Origin: an uncultured bacterium
GTDB lineage: Bacteria; Verrucomicrobiota; Verrucomicrobiia; Verrucomicrobiales; DEV007
NCBI GenBank assembly: GCA_963977015.1
Contig: CAXBMO010000002.1
Span: 256,001 to 320,000, forward strand
Length of the DNA stretch: 64,000 nt
Direction of reading: 5' to 3'
Shown: piece by piece, positions 4,703-59,818 of the stretch
Layout: each line of letters starts with the position of its first letter
Position numbering within the stretch: the first letter of the stretch is position 1
Translations under genes and position numbers: made by a program
Notes under the pieces: generated by a model
What the model was told of the DNA's origin: nothing
Databases searched by the model: none
Seen by the model: the letters and a program-made list of their open reading frames with translations, nothing else

Positions 4703-4872
4703 TCAACATCCCCATCTCCGCCCCGCTAGCAAAATAGCCATAGTTGTAAAAACTATGATCGAATAAAGCAGGGTATCTGTCTTGATTTAGCGGCGCTTAC
4801 GGCTTTCGATGGATCAGGTTGCGAAAAACGATCACTTTTGCGACTAAAAAACCAGAAACAACCGCACGAACC

Positions 4873-7019: not shown

Positions 7020-8432
7020 GTGGTAATGCATTGCCGTTGGATAACCTGCTTCTTGGCGTTGACCTTCGCTGCGGCGACGGCGGAAGAAGCTCAGATATCC
7101 CAGATCAAAGATCCACGGCAGACCCGCGAGCGGGCAACCAGTAGCTCGGGGCAGTTTCTGATCTACGGGGATGATGGCAAGATTCGCAGCCAATTCGCGA
7201 GAGACTGCGAAAAGGCTCGCAAGGATTTCGCGGCAGTCATCGGCCTCCCCAAAGGATGGTATTATCCCGTTGTCGTCGAAATTCATTCCAAACCGCTCCA
7301 GCGAGTCGAACGGCGCACGTTGGTAAGAGCCTTCCCCATTGAGCCGAACGGATTCCGATTCCAATTGGATATTCTGCAGGACGAAGACTTCAAGTCCGCA
7401 GATTTTGAGAAGGCCATGATCAGACTGCTCATTCTCGAGCAGATGTTCTATCCTCCCAATCGTAAAATCACCCAGGACAAAATCCCACCCTGGGTTCTTG
7501 CCGGGATTGAAGAACTTGTCTCCTACCATCGCCACGAAGTCCCGACAGATATTTTCGCTTCGCTGATCGAGTCTCATCAAATTCTCCCCGTTCGGGAAGT
7601 GTTGACGACGTCGCCTCAAGATCTCGACAACAGCGTAACCCGGAAGATCTATCGCGCATGCGCCGCCGCCCTCGTCCAGGCATTGCTCGATCAAGGTGAC
7701 GGCCAAGTTCGATTTCGCGTCTTCCTCCAGGATCTGGCGGTTGAAAAAGCGGATTCAACGGAACTCTTGGAACGGCACTTTGCCGCAATGCGCCAGGATT
7801 ACACCGGACTTGAAAAATGGTGGGCCCTGCAGATGGCCGCGATGAGTCAAAAATCCGTATTCGAGTATCTCAATATCGCGGAAACCGAAAAGCAACTGGA
7901 GCAAGCGCTGCAAGTTCGATTCGACAACCTCCCGGAACAGAAGAGCGCCGAAAACTTCTCAAGTCGAATCCCGAGTTTTCGCGAGATCAAACGTCGCTTC
8001 GATTCGAGCGGGAAGGACTTCACTTCGGGTTCCCTGCGCGACTTTGAGCAATTTGCCAATCATCCGAGGCTTGGCGACGCGTTAAAAGTCACCAGCGATC
8101 AACTCGCCAATATCCAGAATCGCGCCTTTCCCCTCTACATTCCTGTCATCGCCGGGTACAACAAGACGATGGCCCTGCTCCTGGAGGGAAAAACCCGGGA
8201 AGTTGCCGAGCGAATGGAGTTTCTTGAAATCCGCCGGAGGAACATTCGGTCCCAAATGACTCAGGTTACCGACTTCATGAACTGGTATGACGCCACGCAG
8301 ATTGAAGAAGAAAGTGACGACTTTGAAAGCTATGAGCGCGCTCTGATCGACATCGAAAAACTCGATCGCAGGAAACGCACCGACCCGATTTCGGGTTACT
8401 TGGATGCCATGGAAAAGGAGTTTGCCGACTGA
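7020..8432 (+). CDS. Secreted hypothetical protein (possibly a degenerate peptidase-MA-like fold)
   Basis: Signal peptide and a PPWVLAGIEE segment reminiscent of gluzincin-like PxWxxEG, but no HExxH. Confidence 0.7.
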   Translation: MVMHCRWITCFLALTFAAATAEEAQISQIKDPRQTRERATSSSGQFLIYGDDGKIRSQFARDCEKARKDFAAVIGLPKGWYYPVVVEIHSKPLQRVERRTLVRAFPIEPNGFRFQLDILQDEDFKSADFEKAMIRLLILEQMFYPPNRKITQDKIPPWVLAGIEELVSYHRHEVPTDIFASLIESHQILPVREVLTTSPQDLDNSVTRKIYRACAAALVQALLDQGDGQVRFRVFLQDLAVEKADSTELLERHFAAMRQDYTGLEKWWALQMAAMSQKSVFEYLNIAETEKQLEQALQVRFDNLPEQKSAENFSSRIPSFREIKRRFDSSGKDFTSGSLRDFEQFANHPRLGDALKVTSDQLANIQNRAFPLYIPVIAGYNKTMALLLEGKTREVAERMEFLEIRRRNIRSQMTQVTDFMNWYDATQIEEESDDFESYERALIDIEKLDRRKRTDPISGYLDAMEKEFAD

Positions 8433-8487: not shown

Positions 8488-9618
8488 ATGCAGCAAAAGC
8501 CCCTCGTACATCCCGAAGTCCAAGAAGCATTCTCCAACGAAACCTTTTCCGCGGATCGCCGCAAATTCCTCACTCGGGCTGGCGCAGCTGTCGGCGCCAT
8601 GTTGACCGGTCAGGCCATGGCGCAGGAACCCGCCGTTCCGCGTGACTGGACCGGCACCATCCCGACTCGCTACCCGGATCCCGACATCGTCGCACTGGAC
8701 GAACGCTTCAACCAATACAAGCTGGGCAACACCCCCATCCAGCGGATTTATCACAGCTCCAAAATGCTATGGGCTGAAGGTCCTGCCTGGAATGGAGTCG
8801 GCAAATATCTGCTTTGGAGCGACATTCCGAACAACGTGCAGCTGCGCTGGATTCAGGATGACGATCGCGTCAGTATTTTCCGGCATCCTTCGGGCAACAG
8901 CAATGGCAATACATTCGACTTCCAGGGCCGCCAAATTTCCTGCCAGCACGGCACGCGCAAAGTGGTTCGCTACGAGCATGACGGAAGCGAGACCGTTCTG
9001 GCTTCCGAGTTTGAGGGCAAGCCCTTCAACGCCCCCAACGACGTGGTCGTGTTTCCTGACGACGATGGCATTTGGTTCACGGATCCCGGGTATGGCAGCA
9101 TGATGAATTACGAGGGGAACAAGGGACCTCTCCACTTGAAGGAAGCCGTCTACCGGATCGATGCCATCACTGGAAAAATCACCAAGGTTACCGACGAGAT
9201 CAACAAGCCGAACGGCCTCTGCTTTTCTCCCGACTACAAGCAGCTTTACGTCTCCGACACCGGAACGCCAAAACCCGGTGAAGCGAAGAAAATCCGCGTT
9301 TGGGACATCGTCGATGGAACCAAGCTGGCCAATGGCAGAGACTTCGCCTCCATGGAATTTGGAGGGAAGTTTGGTGGAGCTGACGGCATTCGGGCAGATA
9401 TGGACGGCAATATTTGGGCGAGTGCGGGCTGGGTCGGCGACGGCTACGACGGCGTCCACGTTTTTGCGCCGGATGGCACCAGAATCGGCCAGATCAAGCT
9501 CCCTGAAATCTGCTCCAACGTGTGTTTCGGCGGCCAAAAGCGCAATCGCCTGTTCATGACCGGAAGTTCGTCGATCTACGCAGTTTATGTGGAAGCCCAA
9601 GGGGCGCACATCACTTAG
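8488..9618 (+). CDS. SMP-30/gluconolactonase/LRE family protein, Tat-exported
   Basis: DRRKFL twin-arginine signal; WAEGPAW, NSNG, FNAPND, KPNGLCFSPD and GADG motifs. Confidence 0.92.
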   Translation: MQQKPLVHPEVQEAFSNETFSADRRKFLTRAGAAVGAMLTGQAMAQEPAVPRDWTGTIPTRYPDPDIVALDERFNQYKLGNTPIQRIYHSSKMLWAEGPAWNGVGKYLLWSDIPNNVQLRWIQDDDRVSIFRHPSGNSNGNTFDFQGRQISCQHGTRKVVRYEHDGSETVLASEFEGKPFNAPNDVVVFPDDDGIWFTDPGYGSMMNYEGNKGPLHLKEAVYRIDAITGKITKVTDEINKPNGLCFSPDYKQLYVSDTGTPKPGEAKKIRVWDIVDGTKLANGRDFASMEFGGKFGGADGIRADMDGNIWASAGWVGDGYDGVHVFAPDGTRIGQIKLPEICSNVCFGGQKRNRLFMTGSSSIYAVYVEAQGAHIT

Positions 9619-52055: not shown

Positions 52056-54029
52056 TTATGCAACCCGTTGAACATTTGCGCCCTCAGGATCACCTTCTCC
52101 CAAAATGGAAATGGCTGCCTGGGTGATCTCATCAGGGCCAATGGAGGTCATACACCGAAAATCAAGCGGGCAGCGTCGCAGGAAACACGGGCTACACTCG
52201 ACATGACGGCGAATGACTTTGTGGCCGTGACCAAGCGGAGACGTCAGGCTTGGTTCCGTGGATCCAAAGATGGCGACGGTCTTGACGCCCAGCAACGCCG
52301 CCAGGTGCATGGTTCCTGTGTCGTTGGTGATGAGTAGGTGGCAATTCCGGAGTTCTTCCATCAACTCACCGATCGAGGTTTGGCCCACTTTGTTGCTCAG
52401 CTCCACTTCGCATTTTTGCTGGAAATAGTAGGACATTTCATACTCGGCGGGCGCACCATAAATACTCCAATCGACTTTCCCCCGTAGCCGGTCGTCGATC
52501 TCTTCAACCGCCTTCGCAAAGCGTTCGGTGGGATAGCGCTTCGCTTCTCCATAGACGGCCCCAGGACAAATACCAATGCGCCAGCGTCCGCTGAATTCCG
52601 GTTCGTTGTCCCGCATGGCATAAAGATCCGGATCGGTCTGATCCGCCCCAACGTAATGGGCGATTCGCATGTAGCGCCAAGCATGATGCTCGGGCGGCCC
52701 GGGGATTCTTCGCTCGGGGACCACTTGATCCAGGTAGCGCCCCCGACTGTGGCCCTTGTAGCCAACCACATGGGGCACACCTGCAAATTTCATCTCCAAC
52801 GCGGAGCGCAACGAATTTGGAAACACGATCCCGACATCAAACGGCTCCCACATATGGAGCAGGCTCTTGACCTTCAACAACGAAACCCGCCGGGGAACAC
52901 TAATGACCTGATCCACATGTCGAACCGCATTCCACAAATCGGCCGTTCCGTCCGTGCAGAGAACCGTGACGTGAGCGTCAGGCCTTCCGTTTTTGATCGC
53001 CCTGACGGTCGGAACCGACATGCAGGAATCGCCAAGCGGGTTGGGGGCACGGATGAGTATCCGAAAGGGTTTGAGATCCTTTTCGACATCAAAGTTCGGA
53101 GGAAAATCGATTCCACGCCGATAGCCACTCAGCAAAAACTCCGGATTGGGAGTTTTCCAGCGATCATGAACCCAGAACCACTCCTCTGGAGCACGACGAA
53201 TCAGCTGCTCCATCGAGTAATTGAGCTGCGCGGTAATCTGGCCACTGTCCAGCTCGGCTCCATTCTCATCGGTCATCCGAATGGGATCACCATAAACGAC
53301 TCGCCATTTCGCGATGCCATCGGGATACAAACAAACCGGAACAATTGGTGCGCCTGTGCGAATCGAGAACAACGCTGCCAAATTACTGGTGGACGCCAAC
53401 CGGCCAAAGAAAGGGCACCACAATCCCCTTCCGCCTGCGTTTTGATCGATCAAAATTCCAAGCCCACCTCCTTCACGAAGATGCTTCATCGGCCCATAAA
53501 ACCCTTTCTTGCGATCAAATAGGGTCAGTCCATCCTGCGCTCGAGACTCCAGAACGTGCTTGTTGATGAATGGATTGGAAAGCGCCTGATAAAGAGATGC
53601 GCGTTTCACACCGGGCCCCAGAGAAGCGATCTGGCTCAGCAATTCCCAAGCCCCCATGTGGGAAATCGCTACGATTGCCCCCTTGTTCTCCTCAAAAATG
53701 CTCAGGAGGATCTGCTGACTTTCATACCTGACCCGCTTCTCAATCGCAGCAGGCCGCATCAACGACAATTTAACACTCGTGAACAGATTCCTCCCGAGGG
53801 CGCAAAAGTGGCGATGGGCAATTCTACGGCATTCGGAAGCCCCCATTTCATCACCAAGCGCGATGAGAAGGTTCCGCCGAACAATCTTACGATACCCGGG
53901 AAGAAACCAGTAGGCCCACCAGCCGATGAATCCGCCAAAGATCCAGCAGAACCAAAGAGGAACGAAAACCAGGACGGATTCTACCGACCTGAGAAGGAGG
54001 TAAACGAGGTAATGGAGGATTCGCGCCAT
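52056..54029 (-). CDS. waaF: Lipid A acyltransferase (LpxL-like) fused to LPS heptosyltransferase II (GT9)
   Basis: N-terminal half: HMGAWE, LIDQ, FFG, PEEWFWVHDRWK. C-terminal half: IRAPNPLGD, FPNSLRSA, CPGAVYGEAKRYP, NDTGTMHLA, CSPCFLRRCP. Confidence 0.9.
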   Translation of the reverse strand: MARILHYLVYLLLRSVESVLVFVPLWFCWIFGGFIGWWAYWFLPGYRKIVRRNLLIALGDEMGASECRRIAHRHFCALGRNLFTSVKLSLMRPAAIEKRVRYESQQILLSIFEENKGAIVAISHMGAWELLSQIASLGPGVKRASLYQALSNPFINKHVLESRAQDGLTLFDRKKGFYGPMKHLREGGGLGILIDQNAGGRGLWCPFFGRLASTSNLAALFSIRTGAPIVPVCLYPDGIAKWRVVYGDPIRMTDENGAELDSGQITAQLNYSMEQLIRRAPEEWFWVHDRWKTPNPEFLLSGYRRGIDFPPNFDVEKDLKPFRILIRAPNPLGDSCMSVPTVRAIKNGRPDAHVTVLCTDGTADLWNAVRHVDQVISVPRRVSLLKVKSLLHMWEPFDVGIVFPNSLRSALEMKFAGVPHVVGYKGHSRGRYLDQVVPERRIPGPPEHHAWRYMRIAHYVGADQTDPDLYAMRDNEPEFSGRWRIGICPGAVYGEAKRYPTERFAKAVEEIDDRLRGKVDWSIYGAPAEYEMSYYFQQKCEVELSNKVGQTSIGELMEELRNCHLLITNDTGTMHLAALLGVKTVAIFGSTEPSLTSPLGHGHKVIRRHVECSPCFLRRCPLDFRCMTSIGPDEITQAAISILGEGDPEGANVQRVA

Positions 54030-55773: not shown

Positions 55774-58719
55774 ATGCAATTCCTCAATCCATGGCTCGCG
55801 TTCGGCCTTTTGGCGGTTTCGATCCCCATCATTATCCATATTCTCACGAGGCAAACCGGCAAAACAGTAGATTGGGGTGCCATTTTGTTTCTGCGGGATT
55901 CGATGGTGATTCGCAACCGGAGAATCCGGCTCGAGGAAGCGCTCTTGATGGCCGCCCGTTGCCTCCTCCTGGCACTGCTTGCCATGGCATTGGCCCGCCC
56001 CTTCATTCCACCGGGCTCCAATACACCGTGGTTCGCGGTTCTCCCGCTCTTTTTCTTCGGCGTGGTTTGCCTGGGAATTGGCGTCGTCCTTTGGGATTTG
56101 GTGAAGTGGCGTTGGATTCTGCTCCTGTCTGGCACAGCAGCGCTGCTTCTGTGTGTCACCCTGGTCTGGTTTGAGAAAGTCTTCAATCTCAGCCGATTCA
56201 GCAAAGGAGGACGTCAGGACATCGCCTTGATTGTCGATGCCTCGACTTCGATGGCGCTCAATTATGACGGTCAGAGCAATTTCCAGCGCGGTCTGGATGA
56301 AGTCCGCACGATCGTGAAACGCAGCCCTCGAGGAAACTCGTTCAGCCTCATCCTCGGCGGCCCCACTCCTTCCGCTCGAATTCTGACGCCAACTTCAGAT
56401 CGCGAGTTTATTCTTCAACAACTGGATGACATCAAACCGCTCGAAGGTGGCATGGCGGCCTACGATTGCCTGACCCTGGCTTCGCTGGGGCTGGCACAAG
56501 GGAGCAATCCGGCAAAGCAGATCGTCGTGATTACCGACGGCCAGAATGTCGGTTGGGAAACCAACAAACCCGGGCGGTGGGCCTTTTTGAAGGATGCATT
56601 TGAGAATCTTCCATCTACTCCGCAGGTGATCGTCCGCGAAATGCCTCTCCCTTCGCACTTCCGCAACGTCTCCCTCGCTGACATTTCCTTCTCGCGCGAC
56701 ATTGTTGGGGTCGATCGTCCCGTCAAAATTTCCGTCACGATCGAAAACACCGGCACGGAGGCGGTTTCGCCGCGGCAAGTTGAGCTTGAGGTGGATGGAA
56801 AGAACCTGGTCGACCAAACGCTGGGCCAAATGATGCCGGGCAGTAAGGAGACGCTCCACTTTACCCATCAGTTTGAATACCCGGGAGCCCACGAGATTCG
56901 TTCCCAGGTGTTCGTCGATGACGAAATTGAGCAGGACAACACCTCGACCAGCGCTCTCAACATTGTTCGGAAACTTCGGGTTCTTTTGGTGGATGGAAAC
57001 GCCGGTGCTCGCTTCTTTGACCGGGCTACCTCCTTCGCCGCGCTGGCCCTTGCGCCGGGAACCACAATCACCGCACCTGGCGCCGATCCCAACAGTGAGG
57101 AAACCATGCGTTTCCTGGTCGATCCCGAGATGGTTTCCGCGATCGATCTGACACAAATGCCTTCCCTCACCCAGTATGACGCGGTGATCCTGGCAGACAT
57201 CCCGCGAATGCCGCGGGAAGTTGCGGAAGGGCTGGAACTTTTCGTCAATCAAGGCGGTGGGTTGCTCATTGCGGCGGGTCCACGCGCTTCGAGCGAATTC
57301 TACAATTCCTGGGTTTCCAGTGACGGCCTCCCCGTCATGCCGGCACGATTGGTGGAACCGGTTGTCCCCAATCCAAACACCGATCCCATCACGGCTTCAC
57401 TTGAGACGTTTCGCCATCCCTCCGTTCGCGTGGTCGCCAATCGCAGAGAAAGTGATCTCGAGACCGGAAGTTTTGCCCACTACTGGAAGTTGAAAGAGAA
57501 TACGGGCATCGATGCGATCGTCGGAGGTCGCCTCAACAATGGAGATCCCTATCTCACCGCTCGTAAGCTCGGCCTTGGAAATCTCGTGCTGCTAGGCTCC
57601 TCTCTGGATCTGAGATCCGGCAATCTCCCAAGTCGCCAGGCTTTCGTGCCCTTCATTCACGAACTCGTCTATTTCCTGGCGAACCCTGGCAATTTTAATC
57701 TCAACCTCGCACCAAAATGGGAACTCGCCCTCCATCTGGCGGGCAACGAACACGCCTTTTCAGGCCATGGGCTGCGCGGAGAATATTTCGCCAACCGAGG
57801 CGATCGTGAACCCAAAGTCACGCGGATTGATCCTGCGATTCAGTTCAACTGGCGCGGCGGGAGCCCGGCATCCGGGATTCCCCAGGACAACTTCAAGATC
57901 CGGTGGACGGGCAGAATCCAGGCTCCCCGCTCGGCAAAGTACAAATTCAGGGCCGAGGCCGACGACTTCCTCACCGTTTACATCGACGGGCGGGATGTGC
58001 TCCGCGCCGAATATGGAAAGTCGCCTCGCGTTCGCGAAGTCTGGCTCGATGCCAATCGCCTGCACGACATCCGGATTGAGTTTCAGGAAGGCACCAGCAA
58101 CGCCCAGGCCGTCCTCTATTGGGAATGCAAAGATCTCCAACGCCAGATCGTTCCGACGTCTGCCTTCCGCTCAGTAACCGGTTCGGAAGAAGACGTCATT
58201 GCCACCTACCGCGTCACCGGTCCCAGCGGCGAAAAACGAGTCGCCAAGATCGAGGCAACGGCCGGAGGAGCCGTCGCGAAAATCCAGGGAGATGTCGCGG
58301 CGGGAACCTACCAGATTCACATTCCTGATGATCAGCGCGAGAAGTTCAACGAATTGCTGGGCGACGACCGGGACACGATCCCGTTTACGGTGAAACGCGA
58401 CCCCGCCGAAAGCCGGCTTCAGCCCCTCACCAACGCAGATAAGGAATTTCTCGCCAACTACGTGGGATTGGTCGAGCCGCAGACTCCCGAGGACGTCATC
58501 TCGATTTTGAACGGAAAGTCTTTTGGAGAGGAGTTGTGGAAGTATCTCGCCCTCGCGGCCCTTTTCTTCCTGCTCCTGGAGGTGGGTTTGTCACGCTGGA
58601 TTGCGACGTCCCGGCAAATGGCGCAGGATCAACGGATCAAGTTCGATACAACGGAAGCCCCAGGGAATGGGTTTGAGAAGCAACTCAAGCAGGTCAAAAA
58701 GAAGGCAGCCGCTGCCTAA
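55774..58719 (+). CDS. BatA N-terminal domain, VWA, CARDB-like, glutamine-amidotransferase-like and PA14 membrane protein
   Basis: MQFLNP...PIIIH..R, MALARP, VDASTSM (MIDAS), ITDGQ, VLLVDG, GLRGEYF..RIDPAIQFNW..F.IRWTG (PA14) and ELWKYL TM segment. Confidence 0.85.
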   Translation: MQFLNPWLAFGLLAVSIPIIIHILTRQTGKTVDWGAILFLRDSMVIRNRRIRLEEALLMAARCLLLALLAMALARPFIPPGSNTPWFAVLPLFFFGVVCLGIGVVLWDLVKWRWILLLSGTAALLLCVTLVWFEKVFNLSRFSKGGRQDIALIVDASTSMALNYDGQSNFQRGLDEVRTIVKRSPRGNSFSLILGGPTPSARILTPTSDREFILQQLDDIKPLEGGMAAYDCLTLASLGLAQGSNPAKQIVVITDGQNVGWETNKPGRWAFLKDAFENLPSTPQVIVREMPLPSHFRNVSLADISFSRDIVGVDRPVKISVTIENTGTEAVSPRQVELEVDGKNLVDQTLGQMMPGSKETLHFTHQFEYPGAHEIRSQVFVDDEIEQDNTSTSALNIVRKLRVLLVDGNAGARFFDRATSFAALALAPGTTITAPGADPNSEETMRFLVDPEMVSAIDLTQMPSLTQYDAVILADIPRMPREVAEGLELFVNQGGGLLIAAGPRASSEFYNSWVSSDGLPVMPARLVEPVVPNPNTDPITASLETFRHPSVRVVANRRESDLETGSFAHYWKLKENTGIDAIVGGRLNNGDPYLTARKLGLGNLVLLGSSLDLRSGNLPSRQAFVPFIHELVYFLANPGNFNLNLAPKWELALHLAGNEHAFSGHGLRGEYFANRGDREPKVTRIDPAIQFNWRGGSPASGIPQDNFKIRWTGRIQAPRSAKYKFRAEADDFLTVYIDGRDVLRAEYGKSPRVREVWLDANRLHDIRIEFQEGTSNAQAVLYWECKDLQRQIVPTSAFRSVTGSEEDVIATYRVTGPSGEKRVAKIEATAGGAVAKIQGDVAAGTYQIHIPDDQREKFNELLGDDRDTIPFTVKRDPAESRLQPLTNADKEFLANYVGLVEPQTPEDVISILNGKSFGEELWKYLALAALFFLLLEVGLSRWIATSRQMAQDQRIKFDTTEAPGNGFEKQLKQVKKKAAAA

Positions 58720-58791: not shown

Positions 58792-58819
58792 TTGAACTGT
58801 TCAAAAGAACACTTACAAT
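58792..58819 (+). promoter_or_regulatory. Putative sigma70 promoter (TTGAAC, 16 nt, TACAAT) for a leaderless transcript
   Basis: -35 at 58792-58797 and -10 at 58814-58819. The expected +1 falls on the A of ATG 58826. AT-rich sequence lies upstream. Confidence 0.65.
58798..58811. promoter_or_regulatory. LexA (SOS) box 1, TGTTC-AAAA-GAACA
   Basis: Perfect match to the Verrucomicrobia LexA motif TGTTC-N4-GAACA; lies in the promoter spacer. Confidence 0.8.
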
Positions 58820-58832
58820 GTTCTCATGAACA
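58819..58832. promoter_or_regulatory. LexA (SOS) box 2, TGTTC-TCAT-GAACA
   Basis: Second perfect match, 21 bp after the first; overlaps the end of the -10 element and the ATG. Confidence 0.8.
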
Positions 58833-58993
58833 GCACTTCGTCCCAACAGATACCTCAAGTGTCCGATCGAATCCAGTCACTTTTTCAGGACGCCAAACGC
58901 TATCGGAACGCTCGAAAGGTGAGGCAGCGCAATGAGCAGCCCCTCAGTTGCGAGCAACAGCTTCAACTGACTCTGAAGGCGTCGTCAAACTAA
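58826..58993 (+). CDS. Putative SOS-regulated 55-aa small protein
   Basis: MNSTSSQQIPQVSDRIQSLFQDAKRYRNARKVRQRNEQPLSCEQQLQLTLKASSN*. Below the ORF-track length cutoff; supported by promoter and operator geometry. Confidence 0.6.
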   Translation: MNSTSSQQIPQVSDRIQSLFQDAKRYRNARKVRQRNEQPLSCEQQLQLTLKASSN

Positions 58994-59066
58994 GCAATTT
59001 CAAGAATTTCCAGGGTAGAACCGGTGCGTGGTTCTTGGTGTGTCCTGGGTAGAGCAAACAACTGTG

Positions 59067-59124
59067 ATCGCCCGTTTTCCTGAACTCCTTTTTCTTCATT
59101 GGAGGAGTTTGGGAGACGGGCGAT
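59067..59124 (+). terminator. Long imperfect hairpin between the small ORF and the convergent gntR gene (probable terminator)
   Basis: ATCGCCCGTTTTCCTGAACTCCTT...GGAGGAGTTTGGGAGACGGGCGAT; about 24 bp with several G.U pairs on the + strand. Confidence 0.55.
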
Positions 59125-59146: not shown

Positions 59147-59818
59147 CTAATCGCAGTTCAAAAGTTCGTCCCAAGCATGGATGATGCGCTCCTCTTTAAC
59201 CAAGATGTGCTCGCACATCCGTTTTTGGGCGAGATCAGAGTCCCGTGCCGCAATCGCGTCCACGATTTCCAGATGTTCGCGAGAGATGTCCTCCGGATTG
59301 GTGCAGGAATGGAGATCGATTCCGTAGAAATAGGGCTGATTGTCCTGATCCAACGTCGTCACGACGATTTTTTCGAGAATCTCATTTTGAGCCGCCCGCG
59401 CGATGAGGTGATGAAATTCCCGGTTCACCCGAATGCATTCCAGAGCATCCACTTCCGGATCATCATGTTCAGGAACAAACGGAGCTGCAATTCTGAGCTT
59501 CTCGATATCCTTGAGCGTTGCCCGCTGAGCTGCCAATCCAGCAATCTGGCCTTCCACCAATCTTCGCGCTTCGCAAACCACCTTGAATCGGTCCAACGTC
59601 AACTCGGGAACGCGATAGCCCTTGTTTGGAATCTGATCCAGAATATGCTCGTGAGCCAGGCGGGTCAGAGCTTCGCGAAGGCTGGCCCGGGAGACGTTCA
59701 ACTCTTCACAAATCGTCTTTTCGATAAGACGTTCCCCCGGTTTAAAGTCACAGGTCAGGACACGCTGACGAATTACATCTGCAATTTGGTCGGTAATTTT
59801 GATGGGACGGATAGACAT
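59147..59818 (-). CDS. GntR-family (FadR/FCD) transcriptional regulator
   Basis: FKPGERLIE...LNVSRASLREAL..L, then FCD domain NREFH..I..AA.N..L and EH..IVDAI..RD. Confidence 0.95.
   Translation of the reverse strand: MSIRPIKITDQIADVIRQRVLTCDFKPGERLIEKTICEELNVSRASLREALTRLAHEHILDQIPNKGYRVPELTLDRFKVVCEARRLVEGQIAGLAAQRATLKDIEKLRIAAPFVPEHDDPEVDALECIRVNREFHHLIARAAQNEILEKIVVTTLDQDNQPYFYGIDLHSCTNPEDISREHLEIVDAIAARDSDLAQKRMCEHILVKEERIIHAWDELLNCD

Follow-up and report, generated by a model that had tools for sequence, protein, structure and literature searches.

A probably leaderless microprotein gene beneath paired LexA boxes in Verrucomicrobiales, encoding a basic helix with a candidate clamp-binding tail

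We analyzed a 64,000-nucleotide stretch of DNA from an uncultured Verrucomicrobiales bacterium (contig CAXBMO010000002.1, positions 256,001 to 320,000; hereafter the window) and found that a 55-codon open reading frame (ORF) within it is very probably a real protein-coding gene controlled by LexA. The best explanation of the locus, to which we give a probability of about 0.6, is a LexA-repressed, monocistronic and leaderless gene whose 55-residue product, a helix followed by a tail, competes with other proteins for the cleft of the beta sliding clamp, DnaN, acting as a replication brake or biasing the choice of polymerase. The elements from which this reading is built are the following, in window positions:

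58,792 to 58,797, forward strand: -35 hexamer TTGAAC, from a promoter scan; a hexamer of the TTGAAC/TTGCAC/TTGACT type is likewise placed in the 15 orthologous loci described below (read by eye)
58,798 to 58,811, no strand: LexA box 1, TGTTCAAAAGAACA, an exact match that fills the spacer between the -35 and -10 hexamers
58,814 to 58,819, forward strand: -10 hexamer TACAAT, from the promoter scan
58,819 to 58,832, no strand: LexA box 2, TGTTCTCATGAACA, an exact match that overlaps the last base of the -10 hexamer, the predicted transcription start and the start codon
58,826 to 58,993 (stop included), forward strand: predicted leaderless 55-codon microprotein gene, from the ORF list, its homologues and the codon-position pattern

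An earlier note on this DNA, made from its letters alone, had pointed to two TGTTC-N4-GAACA palindromes over a TTGAAC/TACAAT promoter, with an ATG at the expected transcription start and no Shine-Dalgarno sequence. Both palindromes are exact matches at the coordinates given above, and the promoter scan recovers the same hexamers, separated by 16 nt and matching the consensus at 9 of 12 positions. The start ATG at 58,826 lies 7 nt past the -10 hexamer and inside box 2, which leaves no room for a Shine-Dalgarno sequence; in the printed sequences of the orthologous loci, a -10-like hexamer can be seen by eye 6-10 nt before the ATG in all 15. These two boxes are the only exact matches to TGTTC-N4-GAACA in the window, where 0.11 would be expected, and none of 100 shuffled sequences contained two or more; together with the conservation of the architecture, this rules out that the boxes arose by chance. 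The ORF is as the note had described it, with QLQLTL at residues 45-50 (58,958 to 58,975), and the remark that it had been passed over by the ORF track fits with our finding that the exact 55-residue sequence is absent from about 15 billion predicted proteins.

TGTTC-N4-GAACA is reportedly the LexA motif of the Verrucomicrobia, as defined by Erill and colleagues in 2016. The window's genome (6,885,723 bp) contains eight exact copies, two of them at the microprotein locus. Five of the eight are positioned at promoters: the two microprotein boxes and one each at lexA, at an operon encoding ImuA-like and IMS-domain proteins and at a PA0069-family radical-SAM gene. The single lexA gene carries its box 27 nt upstream of the start. 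The second gene of the boxed operon has a Y-family IMS domain and is ImuB-like, while the first gives a weak match to ImuA (24.8 bits, below the cut-off); the radical-SAM gene, which is divergent, scores 455 bits, above the cut-off. We also found an exact box 19-32 nt before lexA, recognized by its LexA DNA-binding domain, in 5/5 other microprotein-carrying genera, so that the box precedes lexA in all six genomes checked. These results bear out the view that the palindrome is the LexA motif of this lineage.

The other exact boxes and some related sites in this genome are recorded here as separate observations. One box (contig 13, position 124,228) is some 157 nt upstream from a 150-aa minus-strand ORF and about 175 nt before another ORF, which by eye we take to be rpoA-like. 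A second (contig 33, position 1,686) comes close to the end of a contig and adjoins sequence that, judged by eye, presumably holds tRNA genes, and a third (contig 28, position 30,708) is intragenic. The dinB gene, encoding Pol IV (contig 24), lacks a canonical LexA box; some 100 nt before it, near position 53,534, TGTTC and GAACA half-sites stand 10 nt apart (TGTTCAAATCAAAATGAACA), which may be an operator of variant spacing or a chance pair. At positions 231,490 to 235,111 of contig 8, the gene next after the boxed ImuA-like/ImuB-like pair is not dnaE2 but a 455-aa ORF that looks unrelated, so the error-prone polymerase gene is either elsewhere or missing from the assembly.

We looked for the microprotein by tblastn in 61 related genomes. 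All genomes of its genus match (g1, comprising the window's genome, G000, and G001-G003), with identities of 65-85%, as does one other genus at 50% identity (E 1.3e-10). There are also weaker matches and, on inspection, these carry the promoter, the box and the conserved protein motifs. A profile built from 12 members then detected it, at E values of 6.9e-16 or below, in 15 of the family's 134 genomes, spread over 7 of 30 genera. The 15 carriers, which include the window's genome, comprise 4/4 genomes of g1, 6/6 of g6 and one genome each of g4, g9, g24, g25 and g29. Across these seven genera, identity to the window's protein is 29-42%, the frame is open and the motifs are kept. Eight weaker hits in the family have neither box nor motif and are noise. 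Among 401 genomes sampled across the phylum, the profile gave hits only at E 0.002-0.01, none of them with a promoter-positioned box, and the exact double-box pattern occurs in none of the 400 other sampled phylum genomes; these phylum searches cover samples and reach as far as the profile does, so they do not prove absence.

The regulatory architecture is conserved together with the protein. The -35 hexamer, box 1, the -10 hexamer and the ATG are in register at 15/15 orthologous loci. Box 1 is exact at nine of them, has one mismatch at four and two mismatches at two. The box overlapping the ATG is exact at six loci and has one mismatch at another; the g6, g24 and g9 loci (8/15) lack it, and most of these carry a TTTTC-N4-GAACA-like site at -45 instead. 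At the g6/g24 loci (L008-L010 and L043-L047), the region from -45 to -17 relative to the ATG reads TTTTCACTTGAACA-C-TGTTCAAAAGAACA, two tandem sites 15 bp apart. There the second operator adjoins box 1, giving the same gene a different operator geometry.

The substitutions in the ORF fall where they would in a translated gene. Between the window's genome and its closest relative, G003, the differences at the first, second and third codon positions number 6, 2 and 30, with a proportion of nonsynonymous differences (pN) of 0.066 and of synonymous differences (pS) of 0.81. The third-position excess is present in all 25 pairs computed, where pN is 0.07-0.39 and pS is 0.62-0.87. Conservation of the frame under purifying selection means that the locus is more than a small RNA (sRNA), and the codon-position pattern rules out a pure sRNA. 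The prediction of a conserved small ORF with an upstream box, a QLxL motif and a ratio of nonsynonymous to synonymous change below 1 is borne out in 15 of 134 family genomes, with pN below pS in the pairs computed.

Two features of the protein stand out, both on the forward strand:

58,850 to 58,933, forward strand: basic amphipathic helix, codons 9-36, from an AlphaFold2 model built on a 14-row alignment; L19, F20 and A23 are invariant
58,958 to 58,975, forward strand: QLQLTL clamp-binding-type motif, codons 45-50; Q45, L48 and L50 are invariant

The AlphaFold2 monomer is a single helix over residues 9-36, with block values of the predicted local distance difference test (pLDDT) of 89-93 over residues 11-30. 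From residue 37 onward the tail has block pLDDT values of 61-76 and is disordered but for a short helical turn at 42-45. Among the 14 aligned members, the invariant columns include M1 in addition to the helix and motif residues listed above; N2, R15 and R30 come close to invariance, and position 46 holds L or M. The motif Q[LM]xLxL is found in 20/20 distinct members, 0-7 residues from the C-terminus, so the conservation of QLxLxL is upheld, as is the basic character of the 55-mer: net charge ranges from +1 to +9 across the same 20 members. The sequence has no hydrophobic or transmembrane stretch, which sets it outside the class of membrane-peptide SOS toxins and division inhibitors (TisB, DinQ, SidA and YneA).

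The tail resembles those of known clamp clients. Members end in variants such as EQQLQLTL, RQLELGL (several members) and EQLELPLF; an excerpt of PMC6204406 gives RQLVLGL as the clamp peptide of E. coli Pol IV and QLDLF as the clamp consensus. The genome's own Pol IV ends in EQLELEI and its ImuB-like protein carries QFQLF; the canonical motif is thus the one that clamp clients of this lineage use. The microprotein matches the beta-clamp motif class (QL[SD]LF / QLxLxL) at every defining Q and hydrophobic position, with the motif in an accessible, disordered terminus, and its tail mimics that of Pol IV. We also considered IQSLF as a second clamp motif and rejected it, as it lies inside the confident helix and makes no confident contact in the model of the complex described below.

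We modeled the complex of a DnaN dimer (25-row alignment) with the microprotein family (14 rows), each with its own alignment. The genome's DnaN is 365 aa long and is related to solved beta clamps, matching, at E 1.1e-56, a chain common to 56 entries, including 1mmi and 2pol. The complex scored 0.68 (runs 0.70, 0.68 and 0.68); as benchmarks, 58 of 80 solved complexes attain this level, as do 2 of 110 mismatched pairs. Three controls, in which either the partner or the receptor was unrelated, reached 0.00 at best. Contact agreement between the runs is at least 66%, and partner pLDDT is never below 54. Microprotein residues 41-53 form the confident interface, against DnaN residues 171, 173-176, 239-243, 245-246, 277-279, 317, 319, 343, 345, 357 and 359-364, which include the C-terminal MPMR stretch; the helix makes no confident contacts. 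The model supports, but does not show, binding of the tail to DnaN, which we regard as probable.

The same genome encodes a second, divergent DnaN-like protein at positions 8,968 to 10,515 of contig 14 (minus strand; locus L108). It is 514-515 aa long, 29% identical to DnaN, and contains the Pfam beta-clamp N-terminal and central domains; a neighboring ORF of 259 aa occupies positions 7,556 to 8,335 on the minus strand. This clamp may be carried by a mobile element.

Could the microprotein be an SOS protein that acts elsewhere than on the clamp, perhaps as a modulator of division or of RecA, in which QLxLxL serves another contact, oligomerization or as a degradation tag? SulA, SidA, YneA and DinI offer precedent, six-residue leucine-rich motifs can serve many interfaces, and the complex score may reflect memory of such motifs. 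Yet the clamp consensus is matched at every defining position in 20/20 members, the motif sits in a disordered C-terminal tail as it does in Pol IV, and the controls with unrelated partners and receptor scored 0.00. The protein also lacks a transmembrane stretch like those of SidA, YneA and TisB. We consider a non-clamp target quite unlikely.

Competition at the DnaN cleft would work as follows. In an undamaged cell, two LexA dimers would cover the -35/-10 spacer and the start of transcription and translation, keeping the gene, which has a strong promoter, tightly off. Upon DNA damage, LexA would be cleaved and a leaderless mRNA would be made, beginning at the AUG or a few bases from it. The microprotein would then accumulate and its tail would enter the hydrophobic cleft of the clamp, in competition with the replicase, Pol IV (through QLELEI) and ImuB (through QFQLF). 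The likely outcome would be a damage-induced brake on replication or a biased exchange of polymerases at the clamp. LexA binding, damage induction, leaderless translation, clamp binding and the direction of the effect are all predictions from sequence.

In E. coli, tight double operators mark SOS products that are harmful when leaky, and this precedent favors an inhibitory role for the microprotein. That its net effect is a checkpoint-like brake is nevertheless a tentative proposal. At least as tentative is the fuller picture of a bacterial counterpart of p21, a leaderless checkpoint microprotein silenced by two LexA boxes that plugs the clamp cleft, with the helix adding a further function such as dimerization over both clefts or contact with DNA.

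Several points weigh against the clamp-competition reading. The gene was found in only 15 of 134 family genomes and in none of the 400 other sampled genomes of the phylum, so its function is accessory. Induction, the transcription start and production of the protein are read from the DNA letters. The contacted region of DnaN is what we take, from the E. coli structures, to be the cleft at the boundary of domains II and III, where clamp-binding motifs dock. Many complexes of the clamp with peptides have been solved, so the model may have passed through memory of the motif and not through recognition of this protein; the proposal of clamp binding in the earlier note thus stands in so far as the tail is placed against DnaN, with the reservation that this placement may be recall of similar complexes. 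The same note had looked to the promoters of lexA and recA for the box: the lexA half of this expectation held, with an exact box, and the recA half did not, as upstream of recA (contig 15, near position 4,704) there is only a site with two mismatches, TGGACATATGAACA, well before the coding region. Direct LexA control of recA may therefore be absent in this lineage. An inhibitor and a helper of clamp clients would also look alike in sequence. Finally, the conserved helix has no assigned partner.

This last point gives rise to the main rival, because a conserved helix implies a second contact. The microprotein could be a clamp-tethered adaptor, its tail on DnaN and its helix recruiting or stabilizing an SOS factor (the ImuA/ImuB mutasome, RecA or DNA), in order to promote repair or translesion synthesis. 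Such a second interaction surface is suggested by the helix, which equals the tail in conservation (L19, F20 and A23 invariant, R15 and R30 nearly so), and the strongly basic charge of the protein and the operator it shares with the ImuA-like/ImuB-like operon point the same way. However, ImuB and Pol IV have clamp motifs of their own (QFQLF and QLELEI), so neither needs a tether in trans; for this reason we dropped the narrower idea that the microprotein supplies a clamp tether missing from ImuB. No partner for the helix has been identified, it makes no confident contacts in the complex model and, by the E. coli precedent, paired operators point to a product whose leaky expression does harm. 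We judge the adaptor role unlikely.

Comparison with known systems places the clamp-competing microprotein among partial likenesses. Hda carries a hexameric clamp motif, and the tail of Pol IV (DinB) is like that of the microprotein in both the type of motif and its position at the end of a flexible tail. In contrast to Pol IV and Hda, the microprotein has no polymerase or AAA+ domain, the whole protein being helix plus motif, and searches of Pfam, NCBIfam and the Protein Data Bank (PDB) detect no homology beyond the motif itself to either DinB or Hda. SulA, SidA/DidA, YneA, SosA, DinI and TisB are likewise short, LexA-controlled effectors, often with strong or multiple operators, but these small SOS effectors, membrane peptides for the most part, act on the division machinery, on RecA or on the membrane, whereas the microprotein is basic, bears a clamp motif and is modeled as soluble.

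SocB-type toxins, such as that of the Caulobacter SocAB pair, are small proteins proposed to block replication through DnaN. They set off the SOS response and are not known to be targets of LexA themselves. A pneumococcal toxin-antitoxin pair with a small protein that targets the sliding clamp is described in an excerpt of PMC12795458. SocB-type systems consist of toxin-antitoxin or protease-adaptor pairs, whereas the microprotein has no adjacent partner gene and no homology to them. E. coli UmuD has a self-cleaving LexA-like peptidase fold, is not tailed with a clamp-binding motif and has no sequence relation to the microprotein. The likeness of UmuD/UmuD' lies in LexA regulation, contacts with the clamp and replicase and the capacity to slow replication (the umuDC checkpoint), as related in parts of PMC3384344 and PMC4045847. 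UmuD and the SocB-type toxins are the closest bacterial precedents, and both differ in fold, regulation and gene organization.

The closest logical analogue is eukaryotic p21 (CIP1/WAF1) with PCNA. As set out in an excerpt of PMC6204406, p21 shares the logic of a damage-induced protein whose C-terminal peptide fills the partner pocket of the clamp and excludes its clients. It differs in being eukaryotic, in acting on PCNA through a PIP (PCNA-interacting peptide) box and in answering to p53 rather than LexA; the parallel is one of analogy only.

Database searches agree with the view, put forward from the letters alone, that this is no recognized SOS gene. Pfam and NCBIfam returned only sub-threshold noise (E >0.07), none of 14 members matched PHROGs, the PDB yielded a single sequence hit, at E 0.17, and feature scores in the ESM Atlas (0.82-0.83) were below the level counted as a lead. 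A word-indexed search of 5.8 billion clusters yielded one relative, identical to the G001 copy. An exhaustive hidden Markov model (HMM) search of 1.84 billion representative proteins gave nine hits at E 0.001 or below: eight family members of 46-93 aa and one unrelated repeat protein. Six of these relatives were looked up; the four with a source name are all called 'hypothetical protein' and come from Verrucomicrobiales metagenome-assembled genomes (MAGs) or metagenomes, and two are unnamed. Where close relatives occur in named records, every one is a MAG labeled Verrucomicrobiales or Verrucomicrobiota. Searches of metagenome and viral loci, run with two closer sub-alignments, found four metagenome loci with matching architecture; neither sub-alignment found relatives in viral contigs, and we rejected a phage origin. 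By sequence comparison, then, the microprotein appears to belong to no described family. In the literature, a full-text search found no dedicated LexA-controlled microprotein with a clamp motif on a helix, the Verrucomicrobia regulon paper and supplements lying outside its reach, and the literal string of the operator motif gave no match.

The surroundings of the gene contain two further elements:

59,010 to 59,049, forward strand: stem-loop in the 3' untranslated region (3'UTR), CCAGG...GGTTCTTGGTGTGTCCTGG, with a core that does not vary among the genus's four genomes; single copy in the genome
59,067 to 59,124, no strand: long GC-rich hairpin, likely a terminator, with a stem of about 25 bp by RNA folding, between two convergent genes

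Upstream, a co-directional gene for a 981-aa BatA/VWA/PA14 protein ends at 58,719. The downstream gene, encoding a GntR/FCD regulator (59,147 to 59,818), is convergent, and the microprotein unit is therefore monocistronic, as had been proposed. RNA folding also recovers the strong hairpin noted after the ORF, at about 59,067 to 59,124. This hairpin is kept within the genus, and in G001 a T run follows it; a simple terminator scan leaves it unflagged because its loop exceeds the limit of the scan. The flanking genes are common to G000, G003 and G002 but differ in G001, and neighbors differ between genera, which argues that the microprotein gene is a self-contained unit.

The 3'UTR stem-loop may act in stability or in regulation, or may itself be an sRNA derived from the 3'UTR. 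It also raises the alternative that the product of the locus is a LexA-controlled non-coding or dual-function RNA, with the stem-loop as effector and the ORF incidental. For this speaks the invariance of the core across the four genus genomes although synonymous sites in the ORF are saturated, as well as its uniqueness in the genome. It is hard to reconcile with the coding signature of 6/2/30 against the closest relative and with a frame and motifs kept across seven genera; furthermore, the stem-loop is not visible in the printed sequences of other genera, and Rfam gave no match except a weak and implausible microRNA hit (E 0.034). We regard an RNA effector as very improbable, a dual function being a minor possibility.

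A protein that competes at the DnaN cleft would add a different kind of member to the SOS regulon, whose known content is repair enzymes, translesion polymerases and division inhibitors. The locus holds a conserved, functional gene that gene callers have mostly missed and that came to light through its operator, not its ORF, and the hypothesis linking it to DnaN and the SOS response is now directly testable. If binding to DnaN is true, the microprotein would be a naturally occurring clamp-blocking peptide, tuned by evolution, in a phylum that has been little studied, and it would mean that bacteria regulate replisome traffic after damage through competitive occupancy of the clamp, by the logic of p21 and PCNA.

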